A DNA stretch of 64,000 nucleotides from an uncultured Desulfobacter sp. (GCA_963665095.1 OY762069.1:3264001-3328000), one strand, 5' to 3'; positions 35,930 through 60,332 are shown, numbered from the stretch's first letter. Notes: a model not told the origin generated them from the letters alone. A program made the numbers and translations.

Positions 35930-36511
35930 AACCAAACATCTTTTTTTGACGGTTTTTATAAAAATTATCAGATAGTCGGGTACAAATTTCATGCGTTTTT
36001 TCCAGAACCAGATCAAGAGGCAAATCAGTCTGGAATTGTGTCGGATTTCCCAAAAACAATCCTGCACATCTCAACTCTTCTTCTATTGTCCTAATGTCTC
36101 TAACTCCACCTTGAAAGCCGCTTGTGACTTTTATGTAGTTGATGCCCAACATCTCTATAAAATTCACTAATCCAGGGAAAAATTGATGGGTATTTTTAGG
36201 AATAGTCATATGAAAAGGCATCCCATAAAACGATTGGGTTTTTTTTTACGCCAGGCGTTGAACAGAAATTCGTGAATTGGGATTATTGTGTCATTCGTGC
36301 ATATCTCCCAGTAAACCAGCCCACTGAAATGATCTCTGATCAGGAAATGGATGATATGTGTTTTCTTCTGATTTTTATAATCCCCAAGTTTTATATCAAA
36401 AGGTTTCTTTTGATATTTCAAGATCCCCTTGCGCGTAACATAAAAATGCTTTGACGGGGTTACAATAAGTTGGTGCACTTCATTGGAATGACGGGATTGG
36501 TAGCGCTTCAT
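35930..36511 (-). pseudogene. Hypothetical gene coupled to rhuM, frameshifted and truncated by IS4
   Basis: ATGA overlap with the rhuM stop; ORFs 36206..36511 and 35880..36221 join near the 9-T run 36239-36247; runs into the IS4 end. Confidence 0.55.
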
Positions 36512-36996
36512 TGATCAATACGCCCTTGCTCATTTGTCTGAATTTTTTCTTCGAGTTGTTTTAATTCTTCTATGTCTTCGTTATCTGCCTGGATGGCTTC
36601 ATAAGCCTTCCGTTTGTTATCAAACAATTGATAAATTTGTTTTACCTTTTCTTTCATAGCCGAACTGCTGACTTTTCCCTTTCCGGTGAGCAGGGGTTGT
36701 TCATTGAATTCCAAAATTCTGTCCACATTTTCTTGCCAAAATTTCATAGTGATATCGATCCTGTTTTTTGCCCTTAACTCTGCGGTTTCAAGAAAGATGA
36801 CAACTGTAGATTCCCGAAATAACCTGAACAAAAACCCGCCAAATTTTTCATATTAAATTGACAAAGTTCCATTTTTCTCAAATTATCCTGTACAGGTTCT
36901 GATCAAAGCATTCTGACAAAAATGAAAAGGGCGAAAAGCTTTGCAGAGCCTCGCCCTTAAGACCGGGATTTATAAAATCCCAAAACAACCATAAAA

Positions 36997-37443
36997 ATGA
37001 TAATAAAGGTCAAAGCTGATATCAAGCAAATTTTCAAGCAGGGCAAAAATTTTACATGGCCAAAACCGTCACGATGTCCACATTGCAACGACTCCAGGCT
37101 GTGGGGACACGGCTTTGTACTCTCCTTTTTTGATGGATTTGATCAAGGGGTGTATTTGAAGCGATATCGCTGCCCCTATTGCAAAACCGTATTCAAATTG
37201 AAGCCATATGGTTTTTTCAAGAGGTTCCAGGCCAGTATCTGGCAAATCCTTACCAGCATTATGAGTCGTCTATACACAGACCGGTATCTGCCGGAACTCT
37301 CCTGGAGTCGACAGCATTTTTGGTTTACTGCATTGAAACGAAATATAGCGGCCTACCTGTCCAACAGTTGGGACAAAGGTGTGGTTGCTGGTTTTATCAA
37401 GCTAATCGGTATGGGTAAAATCCCGGTTACCAGTTCAATTTAA
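36997..37443 (+). CDS. Zn-finger accessory protein of TnA (DUF6431-like)
   Basis: CPHC...LWGHG...RYRCPYC. Confidence 0.7.
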   Translation: MIIKVKADIKQIFKQGKNFTWPKPSRCPHCNDSRLWGHGFVLSFFDGFDQGVYLKRYRCPYCKTVFKLKPYGFFKRFQASIWQILTSIMSRLYTDRYLPELSWSRQHFWFTALKRNIAAYLSNSWDKGVVAGFIKLIGMGKIPVTSSI

Positions 37444-37546
37444 CCATGGGGCTGGATCAGGGTTAAACCACCCTACCGAAGGCTGTGATTTACCGAAGGA
37501 TCATACTGTCATACAAGCCCTTAGAACCAAATTTTAAGGAGGAAGT

Positions 37547-38803
37547 ATGACAGAAAATCAGAAAAAAGAGGTTGCCGTGTTCAGGTTTGGGGTCATTTGT
37601 GAATTTGTGACCGGAACAAATTTTGATTACGGTGAAAAAGAACGAATTTTACAGCAGAAGTGCGCCCGCAAATGGTCCATCCCGTATTCTGGAAGGACCA
37701 GGCTTTCCAGAAGTACGATTCTGGGATGGGTCCGGCAGTATAACGGTCGAATAGAGTCTCTTTACCCCAAAGACCGTTCAGACCAGGGAAAATCAAGGGT
37801 ATTCGATGACGAGACTGCATCTCAACTAATCAAACTCCGGTTAGACCAGCCTGATGCGACAGTCGATACATTGATCTGTTCACTTCAAAAAACTACATGC
37901 CAGACATACAGTCCATCCAGTGTATACCGTTTTTTACGCGGCCGGGGGCTAATGAACACGGCCCGGCCAGAGGATAGAAGAAAGTTTGAAGCCCCGCACC
38001 CCAATGATATGTGGCAAAGCGACGTCATGCACGGCCCTACAGTCCTGGTTCAGGATAAGCAAAGAAAAACGTACCTGATTGCCATTATGGACGATCATTC
38101 CAGGCTGGTTACGGCTGCAGGTTTTTATTTATCTGAGAATCTGAAGACCTATCTTATGGTGCTGGAGCAGGCTTTTTTGAGCCGTGGGCTTCCCCGCAAG
38201 CTGTATGTAGATAACGGTCCTGCGTTCAGATCCCATCATTTAAAATATGTAGCAGCGTCTCTGTCCATCGCTTTAATCCATGCAAGGCCATATAAGCCCC
38301 AGGGGAAAGGTAAAATCGAGCGCTGGTTCAGAACGGTTCGGCTTCAGTTTCTGCAAAGATTTACAGGTAAGACCCTGGATGATCTGAATGGGGCATTTGA
38401 GAAGTGGCTTCATAATGAGTACCATCAGCGTAAAAACAGCTCCACAGGCGAATCACCGTTTAAAAGATTTACCTCGGCCATGGAGTGCATCCGTACCGCC
38501 CCACCGGATCTGAAAGACCACTTCCGCAAAACCGCCCGGCGCAAGGTGGCAAAGGACCGAACCATCACCCTTGACGGCAACATGTTTGAGGCCCCGGTTG
38601 CGCTGATCGGCAGACATGTGGATGTAAAGTACCATGAGGACACCCCTTTGCAGGCTGAAGTTATCTATAAAGCAAAGTCTTATGGCTTGTTAACCCCGGT
38701 GGACCTTGCTGTGAACTGTCGGGTCAAGCGGCACCGCTGGAACGAAAATGATATCCGGATTATGCCTGAACCCTCAAATTACAAGGGAGGGCAACTGTTA
38801 TGA
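37547..38803 (+). CDS. DDE (rve) transposase with Mu-like C-terminal domain
   Basis: WQSDVMHG, DDHSR, YVDNG, GKIERWFRT. Confidence 0.92.
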   Translation: MTENQKKEVAVFRFGVICEFVTGTNFDYGEKERILQQKCARKWSIPYSGRTRLSRSTILGWVRQYNGRIESLYPKDRSDQGKSRVFDDETASQLIKLRLDQPDATVDTLICSLQKTTCQTYSPSSVYRFLRGRGLMNTARPEDRRKFEAPHPNDMWQSDVMHGPTVLVQDKQRKTYLIAIMDDHSRLVTAAGFYLSENLKTYLMVLEQAFLSRGLPRKLYVDNGPAFRSHHLKYVAASLSIALIHARPYKPQGKGKIERWFRTVRLQFLQRFTGKTLDDLNGAFEKWLHNEYHQRKNSSTGESPFKRFTSAMECIRTAPPDLKDHFRKTARRKVAKDRTITLDGNMFEAPVALIGRHVDVKYHEDTPLQAEVIYKAKSYGLLTPVDLAVNCRVKRHRWNENDIRIMPEPSNYKGGQLL

Positions 38804-39609
38804 GTGAAATGTATCGCACCTTTTTTGGCTTATCCAGGGAGGCCTTCCCGGCGCAGATAGAAATTAATGATATCCTGGTTACCCCGGAGGTCTCGGGCGT
38901 TAAAAATCGGATTGATTATTCCTTAAGACTTGGCTGCAGTGCGGTTATCACAGGGGATGTGGGCAGCGGAAAGTCCACCGCCTTAAGGTATGCCGCCTCA
39001 TCCCTACACCCTTCGGAATACAAAGTCTTTTATGTTACGGCCTCAAGCGGTTCCATCATGGAACTTTACCGGCAGATTGTTGAAGAACTGGGCATAGAGC
39101 GGACATCGACGTCCCGCGCTGTTATGATCTCCATTATTAAAAATGAAATACGTGAATTCGTCCTGGGAAAAAAGATCAAAACCGTTTTGATTATAGATGA
39201 GGCATCTCTGCTTCGCATGGAAGTCTTTGCCGAACTTCACACCCTGGTTCAATTTGAAAAAGACGCCATGCCCTGGCTGCCTGTGATCCTTGCAGGTCAG
39301 CCGACATTGATAGATAAGCTTCAGTACCGGACGTCAATCCCGTTTGCATCCAGGATTGTGGCTAAAAGCCATCTGGATGGTCTGGATGTGGCTGGAATGA
39401 AAACTTACCTGATCCATCATTTAAAACTATGCGGCGTTGACACCAACTTTTTTTCTGACCAGGCGGTGACTGCGATTCATCAAGGCTCCGGCGGCCTTTT
39501 ACGAAAGGCGAATAATCTTGCCAGAGGCTCATTGATTGCTGCTGCGGCAGAAAAATCAATGACGGTATCTGCAGAGCATGTCCGCATTGCTTCATCGGAG
39601 ATTTTTTAA
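38800..39609 (+). CDS. ExeA/AAA_22 ATPase (transposition helper)
   Basis: GDVGSGKST, LIIDEA, ILAGQ. Confidence 0.9.
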   Translation: MSEMYRTFFGLSREAFPAQIEINDILVTPEVSGVKNRIDYSLRLGCSAVITGDVGSGKSTALRYAASSLHPSEYKVFYVTASSGSIMELYRQIVEELGIERTSTSRAVMISIIKNEIREFVLGKKIKTVLIIDEASLLRMEVFAELHTLVQFEKDAMPWLPVILAGQPTLIDKLQYRTSIPFASRIVAKSHLDGLDVAGMKTYLIHHLKLCGVDTNFFSDQAVTAIHQGSGGLLRKANNLARGSLIAAAAEKSMTVSAEHVRIASSEIF

Positions 39610-41663
39610 GAAAAAACAGCCATAGAGCAGAATATTACGATTTCGGTGAAACGGAGCCGGGCTCTGCTGAGGAGCAACCTGGTAAGGGATAGCCGGAAGC
39701 AGGCAGCATTGAATAATGCGCCAGGGGAAGTGGGGATTACCTGCTTCCCCTTTCTGCTTTATTCAAGCTGTTCTGCCTATGCCTTAAAAACCTACTGAGA
39801 AGGAGCGCAGCGACTTCTGTAGCTGTCTTAAATAATATGGAAAAGATTTAATCTGTTCAAAATAATTAGAAAATTTAAGTCAGGATAAAATGCGACTCAA
39901 CAACAACCAGTCGGTTCAAGGTGTCGATTTCATCTGTGTTCAGGTAATTTTTAGCAATAAAAATATCCTGTTTCCTCACCACACTGCTTTTCCAGGATGT
40001 CAACGCCATATTGGGTTTGTCTGCATCTGCTCGGTCTAATACGATTTCTGCAGCAGTCTGACCGGTAACTGCAAAGAGTAATTTATTCTGGGTTTCGGCA
40101 AAAAACATCTGGGTGGCTTTATCAGTCTTGTCATAGTCACTGCTTAAGGCAAATAGATCCCGCACCTTCTGATAAAATCGCTTTTCAGAAGCGCGGATTT
40201 CGCGAATACGCTCCAGGAGTTCATCAAAATAATCAGGTCTTCCATCAGGATTTTTTAGGCGTTCATCATCCATGACAAAGCCCTTGATCATATATTCTTT
40301 CAGGTTCTGGTTTGCCCAGATCCTAAATTGGGTACCTCTTTTGCTACGGACTCTGAATCCGATTGCCAGAACCATATCCAATGCGTAAAATGCCACATTA
40401 TAGTCCTTGCCGTCGGCAGCAGTTGTAAAGTAATTCTTTACAACTGAATTTTCCTCTAATTCCCCTTCTTTCAATATGTTGGAGATATGTTGGCCGATAT
40501 TTTGTTTGGAGGTGTCAAAAAGTTGGGCGATTTGATTTTGATTCATCCAAGCCATGCCGTCTTTGGCATATAACGAGACAGATGCTTTGCCGTCTCTGGT
40601 ATTATAAATAATAATATTTTGTTGGTTGTCTTCCATTATCAATCCTCTTGTACCTGCTTTATCAATCTAACTCACCAACATCAGAATTTATAATAGATAA
40701 TACGTCTTGTAAAAACTGTTGCGGTCCACTGAAAAAAAATTTGTTAGCCCAATATTTCATTCATGCGCTCCTGGAAATAGCTTGGGTATTTCTCCATCAC
40801 CGCTCTGGCTCGGTCCCGATTTTGTCTTAGCGCTTTGACGAGATCCTTTTTTTGAGTCGCCGTCAGTTTCATAGATGCGATGAGATCCTGAGAGATGATC
40901 CGGTCTGAAAAACCAAGCTCATAAAGAGCGATAGCAGTTTCCGTTGGCAGGCCATATTTAAGGCGCTTTTGGAAAAGTTGTAGACGATTTATTGAATCGC
41001 CTGTTCCGTCACGCTCCAATATTTCTACAAATTCACAAACGGCACTCACAAGAAGAGCACCATCATAGGCAATGCCGCCCTCGCAGATATCAATAATGTT
41101 CTCGAGTTTGACTTTTCTGGGTCTCTTTCCTTTACCAAGCCTACATTTATTCTTATCGGCAATTAGGAAAAGCTCATGAAACTGAGTCCCAAACATCCAC
41201 TTCTTTGTGATATCTTTCAGGATATTTTTCTTGTCGAACTTATTGAAGGCCCTGTTGTGGATATGACGCTCTATTAATGGCCAAGTGATCTCAAAAAGCT
41301 CCTCTTCACTTTGAGCGGCAAGCAATGTATCTGCATTATCTTTTACCCACGTCTCAATATTTATGGCATCGTTAACACCATAGAGTGTTTTACCAAACGC
41401 TTTCCTGCGATTAATATCGGTAATGTATTTTGAGATATTGTCAGCCAGTACCTTGAACAGCTTTAGTATCTGCTCACGCTTTTCCTCGTCGGCCAAAAAA
41501 TATGCTAAAGTTTGTTCTGCCAACTCAGCAATATCCGCTTCCGAAAGAGTACTCTCACCTATATTGTCAGGCGGGGCGTGAACATGTCATAAATCTCCCG
41601 GTTTAAAAATGTAGGCGATTAAAGGGCCGGCCTCCAGATGCATGTAGACCGGCCTCGGCTTTG

Positions 41664-55054: not shown

Positions 55055-55112
55055 CCCGAACGTAAAGTTGAGTGGCGAGCTTCAGCGAGCCCACTCGAAC
55101 GCCTTGTTGGGC
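55055..55112 (-). other. attC site
   Basis: GCCCAAC-5-GTTCGAGT...ACTCAAC-5-GTTCGGG. Confidence 0.92.
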
Positions 55113-55915
55113 ATATTTTCCATTCTTATCAAATCTTCCAACGTCCATAGCATTATTGTTGGTTCAATTTCTTCGACAAAGAATTTTGCTGATTTTGTAA
55201 ATGGAGCACTGGATATAACAATACCTGTAGGTATTTGTTCTAATGCCATTGATCCAACAAGTTGTCGAATAACGGAAATGGGTACTTGTGATGTGGTTTT
55301 ATATTTTTTCACCTCAACAATGGCTCTGCTATTTTGAAAAGGATGAACAATAAAATCGTATCCATAATCTTTTAGATGCGACTGATGTTCAACGTTGTAG
55401 CCTTTTTTTATAAACCACTGACCAACTAGTTCCTCAAATTCTTGAGCATCAATATTGTCTATGATTTCAGGTCGTTCAAGTAATGTTACTATGCTGTTAC
55501 GAGGATTTTCAGGGTCTAACCCCGAGTAGGGTTCTCGTTCTACATGAGAAGATAATATGTTTTCAACATGAGCCAACAAGTCGTAATGACTAGAATCCCT
55601 AGAAAAGTAACGCATACTTCTTAAATCAAAAGGAATATCATGTATATCAGCAACAACGATAATTTTCTTGTTTTGCCCAAGTGCATAACCTAATTCGAAC
55701 ATAACGTTGGCGTTATTGGGCTGTAAAAAGCAAATAAACAATGAACATTTATTGATCTTTTCAGTGATTGCATGATTAAGCTCACTACCAATACATGTTT
55801 CATCACATAATTCAAATGATTCAGCCCCAATTGATGGAAGATGATCATTAAGAAAACACGCAAACCTCTGTGCTTCGTAATCGTTGTAGGAATATGAAAA
55901 GAAAACTCGTTTCAT
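55082..55915 (-). CDS. TIR/NDT-like domain fused to an Mrr-type restriction endonuclease
   Basis: VFFSYS, NANVMFELGYA; EFEELV...DYGYDF...VEVKKY...IRQLVG. Confidence 0.8.
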   Translation of the reverse strand: MKRVFFSYSYNDYEAQRFACFLNDHLPSIGAESFELCDETCIGSELNHAITEKINKCSLFICFLQPNNANVMFELGYALGQNKKIIVVADIHDIPFDLRSMRYFSRDSSHYDLLAHVENILSSHVEREPYSGLDPENPRNSIVTLLERPEIIDNIDAQEFEELVGQWFIKKGYNVEHQSHLKDYGYDFIVHPFQNSRAIVEVKKYKTTSQVPISVIRQLVGSMALEQIPTGIVISSAPFTKSAKFFVEEIEPTIMLWTLEDLIRMENMPNKAFEWAR

Positions 55916-56263
55916 GACCTGACCTCCTTAGCCCGATACAAAGCCCAAAATTCATAAAGGGCTGATTGCTTGGCATTTACATCATCTGCTGTTTCAGTTC
56001 CAAACCTACAAAAAGACTCAAGCATTCGGTTACATTCTTGAAAACGTGTATCCAGAATTTCGTTGATCTCCTTATCCAATCTATCTGTAATTTTGGGGCG
56101 TAACTCATTTATTTCTTGATCTGATTGAGAATGATCACAAAAAATCATGGAAAAATTAAAGATAATTTGCAAGATATGCCAGGGATGAGGCAGAAGCTCC
56201 CCCGTTTATCTCGCAAATAATCAATGGAACTTCTGCCCCTATTACCCTAACAGGGCAGGAGAT

Positions 56264-56839
56264 ATGCTATCAGAACTTATTAAAAACAAAAATCTTTTTT
56301 TCCATCTTTACGAAATCGATAAAAATACAGCAAAACAGTACAGACAGTTGCCTTGTCCGCATTGTGGAGGCCCCTTATATTTCAGCAATTACATGCGCAA
56401 GCCCCGGGGAGAGCCTGAGGGCGTGCCGGAGGAATTCTTTATTCAGTTCAGCCTATGTTGTGGAACCGAAGGGTGTCGCAAAAGATTGATGCCGCCGTCC
56501 TGCCGTTTTCTGGGGAGAAAAGTCTACTGGTTTGCAGTTATTCTGTGTGTTTTAACAGACTGGCAAAATACCAATGAAAAAATCACCGTTTATGATTTGT
56601 CCATACGAACTGGCATTAGCCGGAACACAATAAACCGCTGGCTTGCCTTTTTTCAGGATACATTTCCAGTGAGCCGAACCTGGCGAAGGCTTCGGGGGCA
56701 GATATCCGCTGGTGTCAGTAACAGCCGTCTGCCGTCAAGTTTCATCAATTATTGCCGGGCGGTGAAATCCAACGCCGAAAACGCACTTGTATCAAGCCTG
56801 ATAATCTTATCAGGCGGGTCCAAAATCAGGGCCGGATAA
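56264..56839 (+). CDS. Zn-finger/HTH accessory protein of TnB
   Basis: CPHCGG, SLCC..EGCRKR..PPS.RFLGRKVY, ISRNTINRW. Confidence 0.75.
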   Translation: MLSELIKNKNLFFHLYEIDKNTAKQYRQLPCPHCGGPLYFSNYMRKPRGEPEGVPEEFFIQFSLCCGTEGCRKRLMPPSCRFLGRKVYWFAVILCVLTDWQNTNEKITVYDLSIRTGISRNTINRWLAFFQDTFPVSRTWRRLRGQISAGVSNSRLPSSFINYCRAVKSNAENALVSSLIILSGGSKIRAG

Positions 56840-56945
56840 TCTCGCGCAGAGGATGAACATAGACAAATATATGCAGGCTGTTTTACCACCTGATTTCAGA
56901 CGTTGATCCGAAATTTTAACCTGAAATTAAAAAGGAGCCTGATTT

Positions 56946-58391
56946 ATGAGTGGTAAAACACAGCACCCGGCAGACCTGTGGGCATTATTTCGCTTTTCGG
57001 TTATCGGCGGTTTACTGGCACGCCCTCCGGCAAAGGGAGAGTTGCAAAATGAACTGACCCGGCTCGCAGGTCAAATCTATTCTCATCCTGTGACGAACAA
57101 ACCGACCTGTTTTCATTTTTCCACAATTGAGGCCTGGTATTACAGGGCAAAAAATTGCCAGGACCCAATTCTGGCTCTGGGCCGTAAAGTTCGTTCAGAT
57201 ATGGGCAAATCCACAGCATTGAATGCTGAATTGATCCGCCTTCTTGGTGTCCAGTACAACACTTATCCGCAATGGAGCTATCAGCTTCATTGCGACAACC
57301 TGGCAGCTGAAATCGCTGAACAGGGCCTGTGTGAGAATCCGCCGTCCTATGCAAGTGTGAGAAGGCGTATGGTTGAACGGGGTTGGAGAAAAAAGGCTTC
57401 CAAGAACAAAAATCAAACATCCGGACAGAAATCAGCTTTTAAGCGATTAGAAACGTATGAAGTCCGTAGTTATGAAACCGAAAACATCCATGAATTATGG
57501 CATCTGGACTTTCACGAATGCAGCAGGCGCGTGGTGGACGAAAAAGGTCAGTGGCATACGCCCAAGGCATTGTGCATTCTTGATGATCGCTCCCGTCTGT
57601 GTTGTCATATTCAATGGTATTTGAATGAAACGGCAGAGGTTTTGATCCACGGCTTGTCCCAGGCGTTTTACAAAAGAGGGCTTCCCAGAGCCTTGATGAC
57701 AGATAATGGTTCTGCCATGATTGCTCATGAAACCGGCAACGGACTTAAACGATTGGGCGTCAGTCATGAGACCACGTTGCCATACTCGCCCTATCAAAAT
57801 GGGAAGCAGGAAGCCTTTTGGGGTACACTTGAAGGCCGTTTGATCGCCATGCTGAGCCGGATGGATTCTTTGACCCTGGTATATTTAAATCAGGTCTCCC
57901 AGGCCTGGATCGAGATGGAATACAACAAGTCAACCCATGATGAAATTCATATGTCGCCATTGCAATGCGCCCTTGACGGCAAGGATGTGTCACGTCCTGC
58001 ACCGGAACCTGAACAGCTTCAATTTTCGTTTACAGCCTGTGAATCCAGAAAACAGCGTCTGTCCGATGGTACCATCTCTTTGATGGGCATCCGGTTTGAA
58101 ATCCCTTCACGGTTTAATCATATCCAGCGTCTTCATGTCTGTTTTTGCTCCTGGGATAAATCGGTTGCCTGGCTGATAGATAAACGAACCGGAAATAAGC
58201 TTGCCGCAATTTATCCCCAGGACAAGACAAAGAATGCTTCAGCAATCCGTCGTATCAAATCCACTCCGGATGAAATTAACCCTGGCCATGAAACCCTGTC
58301 CGGATCAGAACCGGCCCTGCTTAAAAAGCTCTTGTCCGATTATGCAGCAACCGGAATGCCTTGTGCCTACTTGCCAATGGAGGAAAAGTGA
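56946..58391 (+). CDS. DDE (rve) transposase
   Basis: WHLDFH, LDDRSR, MTDNGS, NGKQEAFW. Confidence 0.92.
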   Translation: MSGKTQHPADLWALFRFSVIGGLLARPPAKGELQNELTRLAGQIYSHPVTNKPTCFHFSTIEAWYYRAKNCQDPILALGRKVRSDMGKSTALNAELIRLLGVQYNTYPQWSYQLHCDNLAAEIAEQGLCENPPSYASVRRRMVERGWRKKASKNKNQTSGQKSAFKRLETYEVRSYETENIHELWHLDFHECSRRVVDEKGQWHTPKALCILDDRSRLCCHIQWYLNETAEVLIHGLSQAFYKRGLPRALMTDNGSAMIAHETGNGLKRLGVSHETTLPYSPYQNGKQEAFWGTLEGRLIAMLSRMDSLTLVYLNQVSQAWIEMEYNKSTHDEIHMSPLQCALDGKDVSRPAPEPEQLQFSFTACESRKQRLSDGTISLMGIRFEIPSRFNHIQRLHVCFCSWDKSVAWLIDKRTGNKLAAIYPQDKTKNASAIRRIKSTPDEINPGHETLSGSEPALLKKLLSDYAATGMPCAYLPMEEK

Positions 58392-59215
58392 TGAACAGCA
58401 AACGATTATTGGCTTATTATGGATTGAAGTACAATCCTTTTTTACCAAATATTCCTGTGGACTCATTATGGCATCCACCCCGGATGGAGGCATTTATTAC
58501 ACGCCTTGAAAATATGACCATGAACGGTGGATTTGCATTAATCGCCGGTGAACCCGGTCTTGGCAAATCCAAGACACTACAGGCGATTGCCCATCAGCTT
58601 GGCAAGCTTGATGAAGTCGTTGTCGGCGTTATGGAGCGCCCCCAAAGCAGCGTGGCCGATTTCTATCGGGAAATGGGGACACTGTTTGGTGTCAATTTGA
58701 GTCCGGCCAACCGTTACGGAGGGTTCAAAGATCTGCGGCAACGATGGAAAAATCATATTAAAACAACCCTGTTCAGACCCGTCCTGCTCATTGATGAGGC
58801 TCAGGAAATGCTTACCGGATGCCTGAATGAGCTTCGGTTGCTCAACAGTATGGATTTTGACTCCCAGAATTTATTGACCACCATTATCTGTGGTGATACC
58901 CGGCTGCCGGAACGGTTCAGAACCAGTGCATTGGTAGCCCTGGGGAGTCGACTCCGGTTCCGGTTAAAATTGGATCCTTATACCCGGGAAGAATTGTTGG
59001 ATTATATAGCGCATTGCCTAAATCAGGCCGGAGCTCCTCAACTCATGACAAAACCTTTAATCACCGCTTTGGTAGAGCACTGTACAGGAAACTTACGGGT
59101 CCTCAATAATATGTCGGCAGAACTGCTTGAAGTGGGCGTTCAAAGAGAGCTGCCGCAACTGGATGAGAAACTTTTCATAGAGCTTTTTTCACTGAAACCG
59201 TCGCCAACCAGATAA
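58391..59215 (+). CDS. ExeA/AAA_22 ATPase
   Basis: GEPGLGKS, LLIDEAQ. Confidence 0.9.
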   Translation: MNSKRLLAYYGLKYNPFLPNIPVDSLWHPPRMEAFITRLENMTMNGGFALIAGEPGLGKSKTLQAIAHQLGKLDEVVVGVMERPQSSVADFYREMGTLFGVNLSPANRYGGFKDLRQRWKNHIKTTLFRPVLLIDEAQEMLTGCLNELRLLNSMDFDSQNLLTTIICGDTRLPERFRTSALVALGSRLRFRLKLDPYTREELLDYIAHCLNQAGAPQLMTKPLITALVEHCTGNLRVLNNMSAELLEVGVQRELPQLDEKLFIELFSLKPSPTR

Positions 59216-59226
59216 GAGGTATAAAA

Positions 59227-59469
59227 ATGACAATCAATGAAACACAACTTGAAAAAACAATGGCTGAAATTGTCGACGAGCTGGGCAATCTGGTCATGGA
59301 GTTGATCCTTGTCAGTTTAAAAAAAATAAACTCGGAAAATCATCTTTTGACAGAATTGCTGGAGATCAAACAAGAGGAACAAAGAGAAAATGAATTTTAT
59401 GGTTTTGGTGAAACGGAGCCGGGACATCCTGGGGAGGAAACCCGGCAAGGGATAGCCAAAAGCAGGTAG
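59227..59469 (+). CDS. Small acidic hypothetical protein in TnB
   Basis: GAGG RBS; 3' end runs into the conserved module shared with TnA. Confidence 0.45.
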   Translation: MTINETQLEKTMAEIVDELGNLVMELILVSLKKINSENHLLTELLEIKQEEQRENEFYGFGETEPGHPGEETRQGIAKSR

Positions 59470-60332
59470 CATTGAATAATGCGCCGGGGGAAGCGGGGTT
59501 GACCTGCTTCCCCTTTCTGTATTATTCAAGCTTTCCTGCTCATGCCTTAAAAAACCCAATAAAATCAGTCGGAGCGCAGCGACATCTGCTAATCATTGAA
59601 AATACAGTTATGCCTTTCCCTGATTTATCCTGATTGTCGCTCCATTGATTATCGTGCTTCCTCTCAGATTTACCGACATACTGCTTTTGAATTGTGACTG
59701 TCCAGCCTTTACATGATGAATGAGACCAAGTGGAAGGATGAGCTCTAAACTCAGTTCCGAGGGTTTCGAATGATGAATTCAATAATTTGCCAATTTCAGC
59801 CCCGCGCCACGGTAATGCCCCCAATTCTGGAGTTTTAAGGGATTCCATATCATAAATGAACAATTCTCCGGAATCTGTTAACCTTAGAATTGAATCAATG
59901 AATATATTAGCGAAAGCTCCTGGCTGTAATTCATGAGCTGTATTGGTGCAGGTTATGAAATCGAATCGGTGGTCATTGTTGATGATTTTGTTAAAATCGG
60001 ACAAATCTCCATGTAAAAAGGCGTATTCCTTAAACTTTAATCCGTCTGCCATCCTTTCCGCTGTTCGAGTATGATCTACATTTATATCGTATCCAAAATA
60101 TGAAAGCTTTGCTCTGTGTGTCAAAGATAAGTTTTCATTAAGTTGAGAGATGATTTGTCCTTTACCACATGCCAAATCAAGCCAGCATAATTTGCCAACA
60201 GCAGGATTTTGAAGACGACTATTCAACAAAGTTAATGCTGATTGATGTTGAGGTAAAATTCGCCTTATATCATGTGTAGCATCCGAATCAGCAATCGATG
60301 ACATAAGATTTCCTTGTGTTTATTTGTTTTGA

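Follow-up and report, generated by a model that had tools for sequence, protein, structure and literature searches.

What a structured stretch of DNA is doing in two transposons that otherwise have almost nothing in common is the question raised by a 64,000-nucleotide region of an uncultured Desulfobacter sp. (GCA_963665095.1 OY762069.1:3264001-3328000), the whole of which is called the window here. A sequence-only reading had noted that positions 39630-39819 and 59392-59588, in two elements designated TnA and TnB, align closely within otherwise divergent hosts, and both observations hold. The two stretches are 80.2% identical over 197 nt (E 3e-45 against the genome) and are the sole nucleotide-level similarity between the elements, with transposases that are 27.4% identical over 380 aa, ATPases that are 22.6% identical over 235 aa, and first ORFs that give no significant match to one another. 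The elements are composed as follows.

36805-39902, + strand: TnA, a 3098-bp multicopy element with a Cys-motif ORF, a DDE transposase, an ExeA-like ATPase, and the module
37547-38803, + strand: TnA DDE transposase (rve), nearest NCBIfam family IS481 (204 bits, cut-off 224)
38800-39609, + strand: TnA ExeA-like AAA_22 ATPase, its stop ~30 nt upstream of the module
56126-59666, + strand: TnB, a 3541-bp multicopy element with a Cys-motif/HTH ORF, a DDE transposase, an ExeA-like ATPase, a small acidic ORF, and the module
56946-58391, + strand: TnB DDE transposase (rve)
58361-59215, + strand: TnB ExeA-like AAA_22 ATPase
59227-59469, + strand: TnB 80-aa ORF without a Pfam match, its 3′ end entering the 5′ domain of the module

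Both are intact multicopy elements, with termini TGT...ACA and target duplications of 4-5 bp in TnA, and termini TGAGA...TCTCA and target duplications of 3-7 bp in TnB. An empty TnA site, with 36799 joined to 39903, is present in contigs from two runs; no circle junctions were found among the DNA contigs aligned to TnA or TnB, an assembly product from which rare forms drop out. Each element adds an ATPase and an upstream Cys-motif ORF to its transposase, and IS481 membership was rejected for both (NF033577 scores of 204 and 89.9 bits, below the cut-off of 224). The 80-aa ORF of TnB has no counterpart in TnA.

The Cys-rich first ORFs (36997-37443 in TnA and 56264-56839 in TnB) match no Pfam or NCBIfam family above cut-off, and their mutual similarity is undetectable. 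TnA splits a RhuM-family gene (PF13310) into halves at 36508-36831 and 39875-40642 (- strand), both of which match the family. A methyltransferase ORF (59540-60304, - strand) extends into the right end of TnB, so that its present C-terminus is read from the opposite strand of that element, and TnB has probably interrupted it. At G000:C1:527828-528178 the left end of a TnB variant (350 bp, 94.6% identical) stands by itself, without a right end. Positions 34690-63749 of the window form a dense mobile and defence island that includes IS4/5-type DDE, IS21 (istA/istB), and IS3 elements, two IS91-type and integrase pairs, HamA and a DEAD helicase adjoining IS3, and a TIR-Mrr fusion at 55082-55915.

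The sequence-only reading described the common stretch as a structured module of ~190 nt, with a compensatory change in a small hairpin, an indel, and a long stem. Those three features are as claimed and the conserved structure stands, but the conserved core is ~155 nt (39641-39792 in TnA) and the mini-hairpin that follows is a separate accessory. The parts, with the TnA and TnB copies called modules A and B, are given below.

39641-39698, + strand: module A 5′ domain, comprising P1, a purine-rich linker, P2, and the linker J2/1
39641-47 paired with 39692-98, + strand: P1
39656-61 paired with 39678-83, + strand: P2, which bears a 4-bp hairpin with a G-R-G-R loop (39665-76)
39684-91, + strand: linker J2/1
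39700-39777, + strand: P3, a long variable stem with a terminator-like hairpin (39723-39751) at its apex and a U-rich run after that hairpin
39779-39792, + strand: 3′ box and A-run, the box pairing with J2/1 (pseudoknot)
39803-39814, + strand: accessory GC-GNA-GC mini-hairpin GAGCGCAGCGAC, separate from the core
59403-59556, + strand: module B core, with the same parts as module A and its 3′ box at 59542
59572-59583, + strand: module B accessory GC-GNA-GC mini-hairpin

Fold z-scores are -4.3 (module A) and -5.0 (module B) on the + strand and -2.0 and -3.6 on the - strand. A coding explanation was rejected, as no ORF common to both copies runs across the module, and the search of Rfam 15 at gathering scores matched no family (best E 2.2 in one search); one group II intron match in a related locus (L293) lies ~300 nt off the module. 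A covariance model run on the genome gave 27 matches among the 150 of 2526 candidates scored, 14 of the copies belonging to TnA and 13 to TnB.

Support for the fold comes from the wider family, in which 144 cores were collected, 125 of them of a common 65-nt length, leaving 97 after de-duplication. In the 5′ domain of these 97, 96.1% of cells are paired, 13 of the 17 pairs show two-sided changes, and the covariation score of 0.617 compares with 0.203 in shuffles (0/500) and at most 0.138 for slid partners; the covariation check proposed in the sequence-only reading thus favours the fold. Linker and loop letters were set by the search pattern, which left P1 and the outer stem of P2 free, so invariance in the linkers and loops is partly by construction. 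G-U and U-G cells number 141 in the stems against 25 for A-C and C-A, an excess that identifies the + strand as the folding strand. The long stem P3 folds better on this strand in 79/89 copies, and the strand preference is 76/89 with RNA parameters and weaker, at 61/89, with DNA parameters.

The 3′ half of the core is joined to the 5′ domain by the long-range pairing of J2/1 with the 3′ box, which is Watson-Crick in 121/126 copies with four pair types (GC 80, CG 38, AT 2, TA 1, and 5 mismatches at the diagnostic position); as this signal is mostly the split between two subtypes, it stands for few evolutionary events and not 121. The pseudoknot pairing was counted in an anchored script only. 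MAFFT misplaced P3 and set the second subfamily off by a column, and the covariance model is not full-length. The 3′ box with its A-run closes the core in 123 of the 149 copies with enough flank. Of the first 8 nt after the apex hairpin of P3, at least 5 are T in 65/108 copies, and an A-run precedes the hairpin in 12; a plain intrinsic terminator was nevertheless rejected as the identity of the module, the hairpin being its most variable part and conservation lying in the 5′ domain and the 3′ box.

A primosome site had also been proposed, at GAGCGCAGCGA. This stretch falls outside the conserved core, and such GNA/ANA-triloop mini-hairpins follow the core or box in 30/117 copies, against 7 in control windows and 3.9 in shuffles; the GAGCGNAGCG tail is an optional add-on to the module. 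The background to these hairpins is the stability rule for DNA triloops, and the accessory at 39803-39814 resembles both the CS-6 box of ssoA and a conserved stretch that lies beyond the ColE1 origin on its downstream side. A further hairpin, GGGGC-NNN-GCCCC, trails some modules and also stands alone in small plasmids of Roseivivax (L183) and Thiothrix (L185).

In GTDB, pattern scans put the window's subtype at ~460 stretches, as estimated from the matches listed, among which many lie in Planctomycetota, Desulfobacterota, and Acidobacteriota, and a second subtype, found mostly in Bacteroidota, at ~660, also estimated from the matches listed. A subtype-neutral pattern gave an estimate of ~8,300 stretches in metagenomes, again from the matches listed, and strict patterns gave no match in viral contigs. 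BLAST gave matches, a number of which are short and weak, in 50/151 host-family genomes, and the covariance model matched 13/151 genomes in Planctomycetota, 4/151 in the window's phylum, and 7/151 in Bacteroidota, the weakest by chance. Six weak model matches (L240, L220, L221, L242, L243, and L244) were discarded as chance, lying in coding regions or a repeat array; at L242 (G529:C66), a spacer of a CRISPR-like array resembles the P2 hairpin of the module. The patchiness of the model and BLAST matches across the sampled genomes fits the distribution expected for cargo of mobile DNA. BLAST of plasmids and phages with the window copy or a Planctomycete copy as query was blank or at chance level, and one further set of BLAST matches was set aside because it covered the downstream hairpin only.

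The module had been described from two DDE+ExeA transposons, a host range that proved too narrow. Neighbouring genes, labelled with a purpose-made set of reference proteins and checked by Pfam/NCBIfam, place it in IS110, IS3/IS481, IS21, ISL3, and IS256-type elements, in DDE+ExeA elements, in RepL plasmids, and in rolling-circle phage-like contigs. Among 319 de-duplicated copies, the 36 in DDE+ExeA elements are all sense to the transposase; antisense and sense copies number 29 and 8 in IS110, 33 and 5 in IS3/IS481-like elements, 36 and 0 in IS256-type elements, 18 and 0 in IS21, and 18 and 2 in ISL3, with one sense copy in ISAzo13, one antisense copy beside Y1, five sense copies beside rep/mob genes, and 127 unlabelled. 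Labelled IS copies other than DDE+ExeA are antisense in 134/150 cases and sense in 16/150, at either IS end, and the antisense modules usually face the 3′ end of the transposase gene. ISL3 copies from metagenomes mostly lie upstream of the gene and point outward (6/7). In one IS21 group (L045, L056, L087, and L272), the 3′ end of the istA coding sequence contains the module, on the opposite strand. Seven loci without a transposase label (L067, L074, L082, L118, L132, L137, and L463) have downstream sequence in common with ISL3 host ends and are possibly ISL3-derived miniature elements that have kept the module.

For the first 80 of 116 metagenome loci, the nearest labelled neighbour is an IS protein in 44, plasmid rep/mob in 5, and none in 31, of which 20 had <400 nt on one side; Pfam, applied to 52 of the 69 ORFs of these 31 loci, found three transposases, one HTH-only ORF, one phage integrase, and one G2P-type rolling-circle Rep. 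The label set held one IS4/IS5-type representative only, so the absence of cut-and-paste hosts is suggestive at most. Most IS do without the module, and none was found in the IS21, IS3, IS91, and IS4-type elements of the window's genome.

Small replicons are the second setting. The module is carried by a Hymenobacter plasmid of 3986 bp that encodes RepA and MobV and lacks an annotated transposase; a Tunicatimonas RepL plasmid, also without an annotated transposase, has the 5′ domain and terminator and no clear 3′ box. Six metagenomic contigs similar to these plasmids bear the module, three of them with Pfam RepL above cut-off, and two phage-like contigs with Rep_1 bear it with covariance-model E values of 1e-9 to 1e-10. 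The module lies on the rep strand in the rolling-circle phage-like contigs L368 and L372 (Rep_1) and L409 (G2P) and in the RepL/RepA plasmids L379, L425, L427, L429, L453, L466, L472, and L510, which together represent about three independent Rep families. In six plasmids (L379, L425, L427, L429, L453, and L472), a long perfect palindrome is closed by the 3′ box as well, with two repeated small hairpins lying between, and the box, with either J2/1 or the palindrome arm as its partner, is a possible switch. Two related phage-like contigs from IMG/VR (L382 and L386, 14-15 kb) combine a Rep_1 HUH initiator with a Bacteroidota-type promoter box, and the nearest phage-database relatives of their Reps are inovirus-labelled and ~30% identical. 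An Ornithobacterium plasmid with Rep3 (L380:12997-13027, - strand) has the P2 hairpin alone, accompanied by a promoter box and placed ahead of a small operon.

Across 25 DDE+ExeA elements, mean module identity is 0.69 where ATPases are <35% identical and 0.68 where they are 35-70% identical, and it reaches 0.95 between elements with ATPases <35% identical; this uncoupling argues that the module moves between elements. Recombination between element ends, an explanation of the conservation that the sequence-only reading had anticipated, is thus partly borne out, but swapping does not account for covariation across phyla. The module is probably a structured RNA family without an Rfam match whose copies have passed between IS families of no close relation, small plasmids, and phage-like DNA.

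Whether it acts as RNA or as DNA is addressed most directly by what precedes it. In the window's subtype, a TAnnnT box ends 3-4 nt before the model start in 92/166 copies (at most 9 at other positions), rising to 68/99 in GC-rich hosts (at most 3 elsewhere), and 25 of 63 GC-rich copies have TTG at a 17-18-nt spacer from it. TAnnTTTG, the Bacteroidota -7 consensus (PMC7366714), occurs within -30..+8 in 72/305 copies, compared with 15/1663 control windows, and ends at -4..+1 of the model start in 71/305. At one start site measured in that study, the -7 box ends 6 nt before the start (PMC7366714), a distance that places the start of the module at the first base of P1. By eye, TAnnTTTG stands directly before P1 in six plasmid and phage-like copies, with one mismatch in two and not at all in one; TAnnnT was present at the corresponding place in 0/6 rep/mob copies. 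In other IS, TAnnnT directly precedes P1 in 109/133 copies (5-20 in control windows), compared with 2/36 DDE+ExeA copies, all located behind the ATPase gene and in its orientation; TnA and TnB themselves lack promoter boxes upstream of the module, and the boxes elsewhere are consensus matches. Neither the module sequence nor its promoter was found in the searchable supplements of the Bacteroides thetaiotaomicron transcription start site map, made for a strain that may not carry the module.

A promoter that is present where it is needed and absent where co-transcription is possible makes the module most simply an RNA gene. Of the two options first suggested, a non-coding RNA or a single-stranded DNA signal, the RNA is the better supported: judged by the promoter-consensus matches, the excess of G-U over A-C, and the covarying long-range pair, the module is probably transcribed.

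IS110 bridge RNAs and IS200/IS605 omega RNAs, which are structured non-coding RNAs, likewise occupy the non-coding end of an IS; each works with a single family of transposases or nucleases and contains guide sequences. The module, by contrast, is common to DDE and DEDD transposases and to replicons, and its loops and linkers are conserved and not target-variable. Identity with the bridge RNA was rejected, as 37/192 labelled copies adjoin IS110 and the rest adjoin DDE transposases, ATPases, or rep/mob genes. The 250 mobile/repeat sequence candidates (MRSC) of Narunsky et al. 2024 (PMC11109978) are structured motifs near transposases in mixed orientation, as is the module; MRSC-65-2, the one example compared, is a single long stem and differs from it. 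No description of the module was found in the literature searched, chiefly papers outside subscription journals, and it could sit unnamed among those 250 or among the clusters of 10.64898/2026.10.21.760802.

For function, the reading tentatively preferred here, by analogy and at less than even odds, is that the module may be a cis-acting replication primer, similar to ColE1 RNA II, that copies the circularised strand in copy-out transposition. Transcription would begin with the first base of P1, driven by the module's own promoter; in TnA and TnB the RNA would be the tail of the transposase-operon transcript. Its folded 5′ domain and pseudoknot would hold the 3′ end at the A-run on the template as an R-loop, RNase H or termination would yield a 3′-OH, and a DNA polymerase would extend it. 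Where an IS circularises one of its strands (copy-out), the primer would copy that strand, and since the RNA is antisense in most IS here, its template would be the transposase-sense strand. The terminator-like hairpin in P3 would limit the transcripts that reach the 3′ box, the optional DNA-type mini-hairpin downstream, being on the displaced strand, would load a primosome, and the origin of RepL plasmids would include this RNA as one of its parts.

We infer this role in DNA priming from the hosts' common need to copy a DNA circle, the by-eye likeness to the ColE1 origin region, and the agreement between the template of an antisense RNA and the strand circularised by CazIS110-1. The labelled hosts include IS110, IS3, IS21, ISL3, and IS256, all listed with circular intermediates (10.1101/2023.06.07.543989), and CazIS110-1, an IS110, circularises its top strand, taken here as sense (10.1101/2025.10.25.684509). 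RepL/RepA and MobV plasmids without an annotated transposase carry the module as well. Against a primer, the published copy-out model already has the flank 3′-OH prime synthesis (10.1101/2023.06.07.543989), and most IS manage without the module. The sense orientation is seen in all 36 DDE+ExeA copies and in 16/150 of those in other IS; in rolling-circle phage-like contigs, three copies occupy the rep strand, where a same-sense primer would have no obvious use; and the Tunicatimonas RepL plasmid lacks a clear 3′ box. IEE PrimPol is likewise tied to the replication step of circle-forming IS (10.1101/2023.06.07.543989); it is a trans-acting protein that promotes excision, whereas the module is carried by the IS itself as a nucleic-acid element.

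Compared by eye, the ColE1 origin region has its parts in the same order as the module. Priming at ColE1 involves RNase H and Pol I. The RNA II origin, like the module, has a purine linker, a G-rich hairpin with a 4-nt loop, an ATAG element that can pair with the box before an A-run, a long stem between these, and a GAGCGNAGCGA stretch downstream on the same strand; RNA II primes ColE1 replication as an RNA-DNA hybrid (PMC8683028), and ColE1 has a primosome assembly site (PMC4595007). With a promoter and a 3′ box bearing an A-run, the module resembles a ColE1-type pre-primer by consensus matches only. It differs in being ~155 nt and not ~550, and in occurring in IS and non-gammaproteobacterial plasmids. 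Every statistical test of kinship failed: the covariance model gave 4.9 bits at the ColE1 origin (E 7.6, rank 14/16) and nothing significant against pES213, pB1000, and pAsa10 (best E 0.05), nhmmer found no match in ColE1 or these three plasmids, and a block-PWM chain, designed after ColE1 had been seen, ranked the expected site second and inside shuffle noise. Homology to ColE1 was rejected on these four tests, and ColE1 is kept as an analogy only.

A wider form of the primer reading is somewhat unlikely: IS of unrelated chemistries (DDE and DEDD) may repeatedly have captured a miniature RNA-primed origin from small plasmids or phages, which would fire on the single-strand-bridged intermediate and mark a class of replicons with RNA priming that spans Bacteroidota, Planctomycetota, and Desulfobacterota.

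A regulatory or protein-binding small RNA, which would damp transposase or rep expression through convergent or antisense transcription and termination, or would bind a host protein, and would prime nothing, is rather unlikely, though it draws on several of the same observations. The module has its own promoter, it is antisense in 134/150 labelled IS copies and usually directed toward the 3′ end of the transposase gene, and a U-run follows the internal hairpin in 65/108 copies. This account sits poorly with the ISL3 copies, which mostly lie before the gene and point outward (6/7), and with the sense orientation of all 36 DDE+ExeA copies and of the plasmid copies; antisense action requires neither a conserved pseudoknot nor an A-run, and restriction to circle-forming IS and replicons would be left unexplained.

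That the module is instead a single-strand origin, a fold of single-stranded DNA that recruits RNA polymerase or a primosome for the second strand of a single-stranded circle, is distinctly improbable. It is similar in size to ssoA/palA (~160 nt), likewise has a strand-specific fold, and occurs on RepL and other rolling-circle replicons; by eye, its 3′ box resembles RS_B and precedes a CS-6-like stretch in the order found in pT181-type plasmids. Such origins work on the leading strand only, and pSN2/RepL plasmids use ssoA (PMC5703833). Its place on the rep strand of Rep_1, G2P, and RepL replicons, the palindrome closed by the 3′ box in RepL plasmids, and the triloop hairpins after the box (30/117 copies, 7 in control windows) point the same way. 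Unlike ssoA/palA, the module has a pseudoknot and an upstream double-stranded promoter, with -10/-7 and -35 boxes at the ordinary spacing expected for an RNA of the same sense, and its conserved 5′ domain has no counterpart found in pT181. In the comparison with pT181, the sole single-strand origin compared, the covariance model was not significant (best E 0.8), and RS_B, whose order with CS-6 is a resemblance by eye, ranked fifth under a PWM of the box. The IS110 modules mostly lie opposite the strand circularised by CazIS110-1 (29 antisense and 8 sense), and the strand preference is weaker with DNA than with RNA parameters.

A ribozyme that cleaves or processes itself, trimming either its own RNA or the transposase-operon transcript, is very improbable. 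A compact pseudoknot, conserved purine linkers, and a long variable stem would suit one, as would the location directly after the ATPase stop in DDE+ExeA elements, but no Rfam ribozyme matched, the strand order of HDV-like ribozymes differs from that of the module, and a dedicated promoter at the first base leaves no upstream sequence to cut. Least likely is that the module is a hitch-hiker, selfish or neutral, in the form of a terminator or mini-element that recombination has moved from one IS end to another, for although module and ATPase identity are uncoupled in 25 DDE+ExeA elements, 127/319 copies have no labelled neighbour, and the apex is terminator-like, the covariation is deep and includes a long-range pair, the promoter box type changes with the host phylum, and the window's genome holds no free copies (27/27 matches are in TnA or TnB).

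The start of the replication step in copy-out transposition is mostly inferred from few elements, and a cis element found in six IS groups and small replicons offers a mutable handle on it, with a promoter, a pseudoknot, and an A-run to alter; the module family also predicts the circularised strand of each IS. Should the priming reading be true, the module would be a ~155-nt origin part for phyla with few genetic tools, and it would raise doubt whether RepL plasmids, with their small HTH initiator, all replicate as assumed. If it is merely regulatory, it would still be an abundant class of structured RNA without an Rfam match that crosses transposase families, and if the captured-origin reading is true, copy-out transposons would own an origin.
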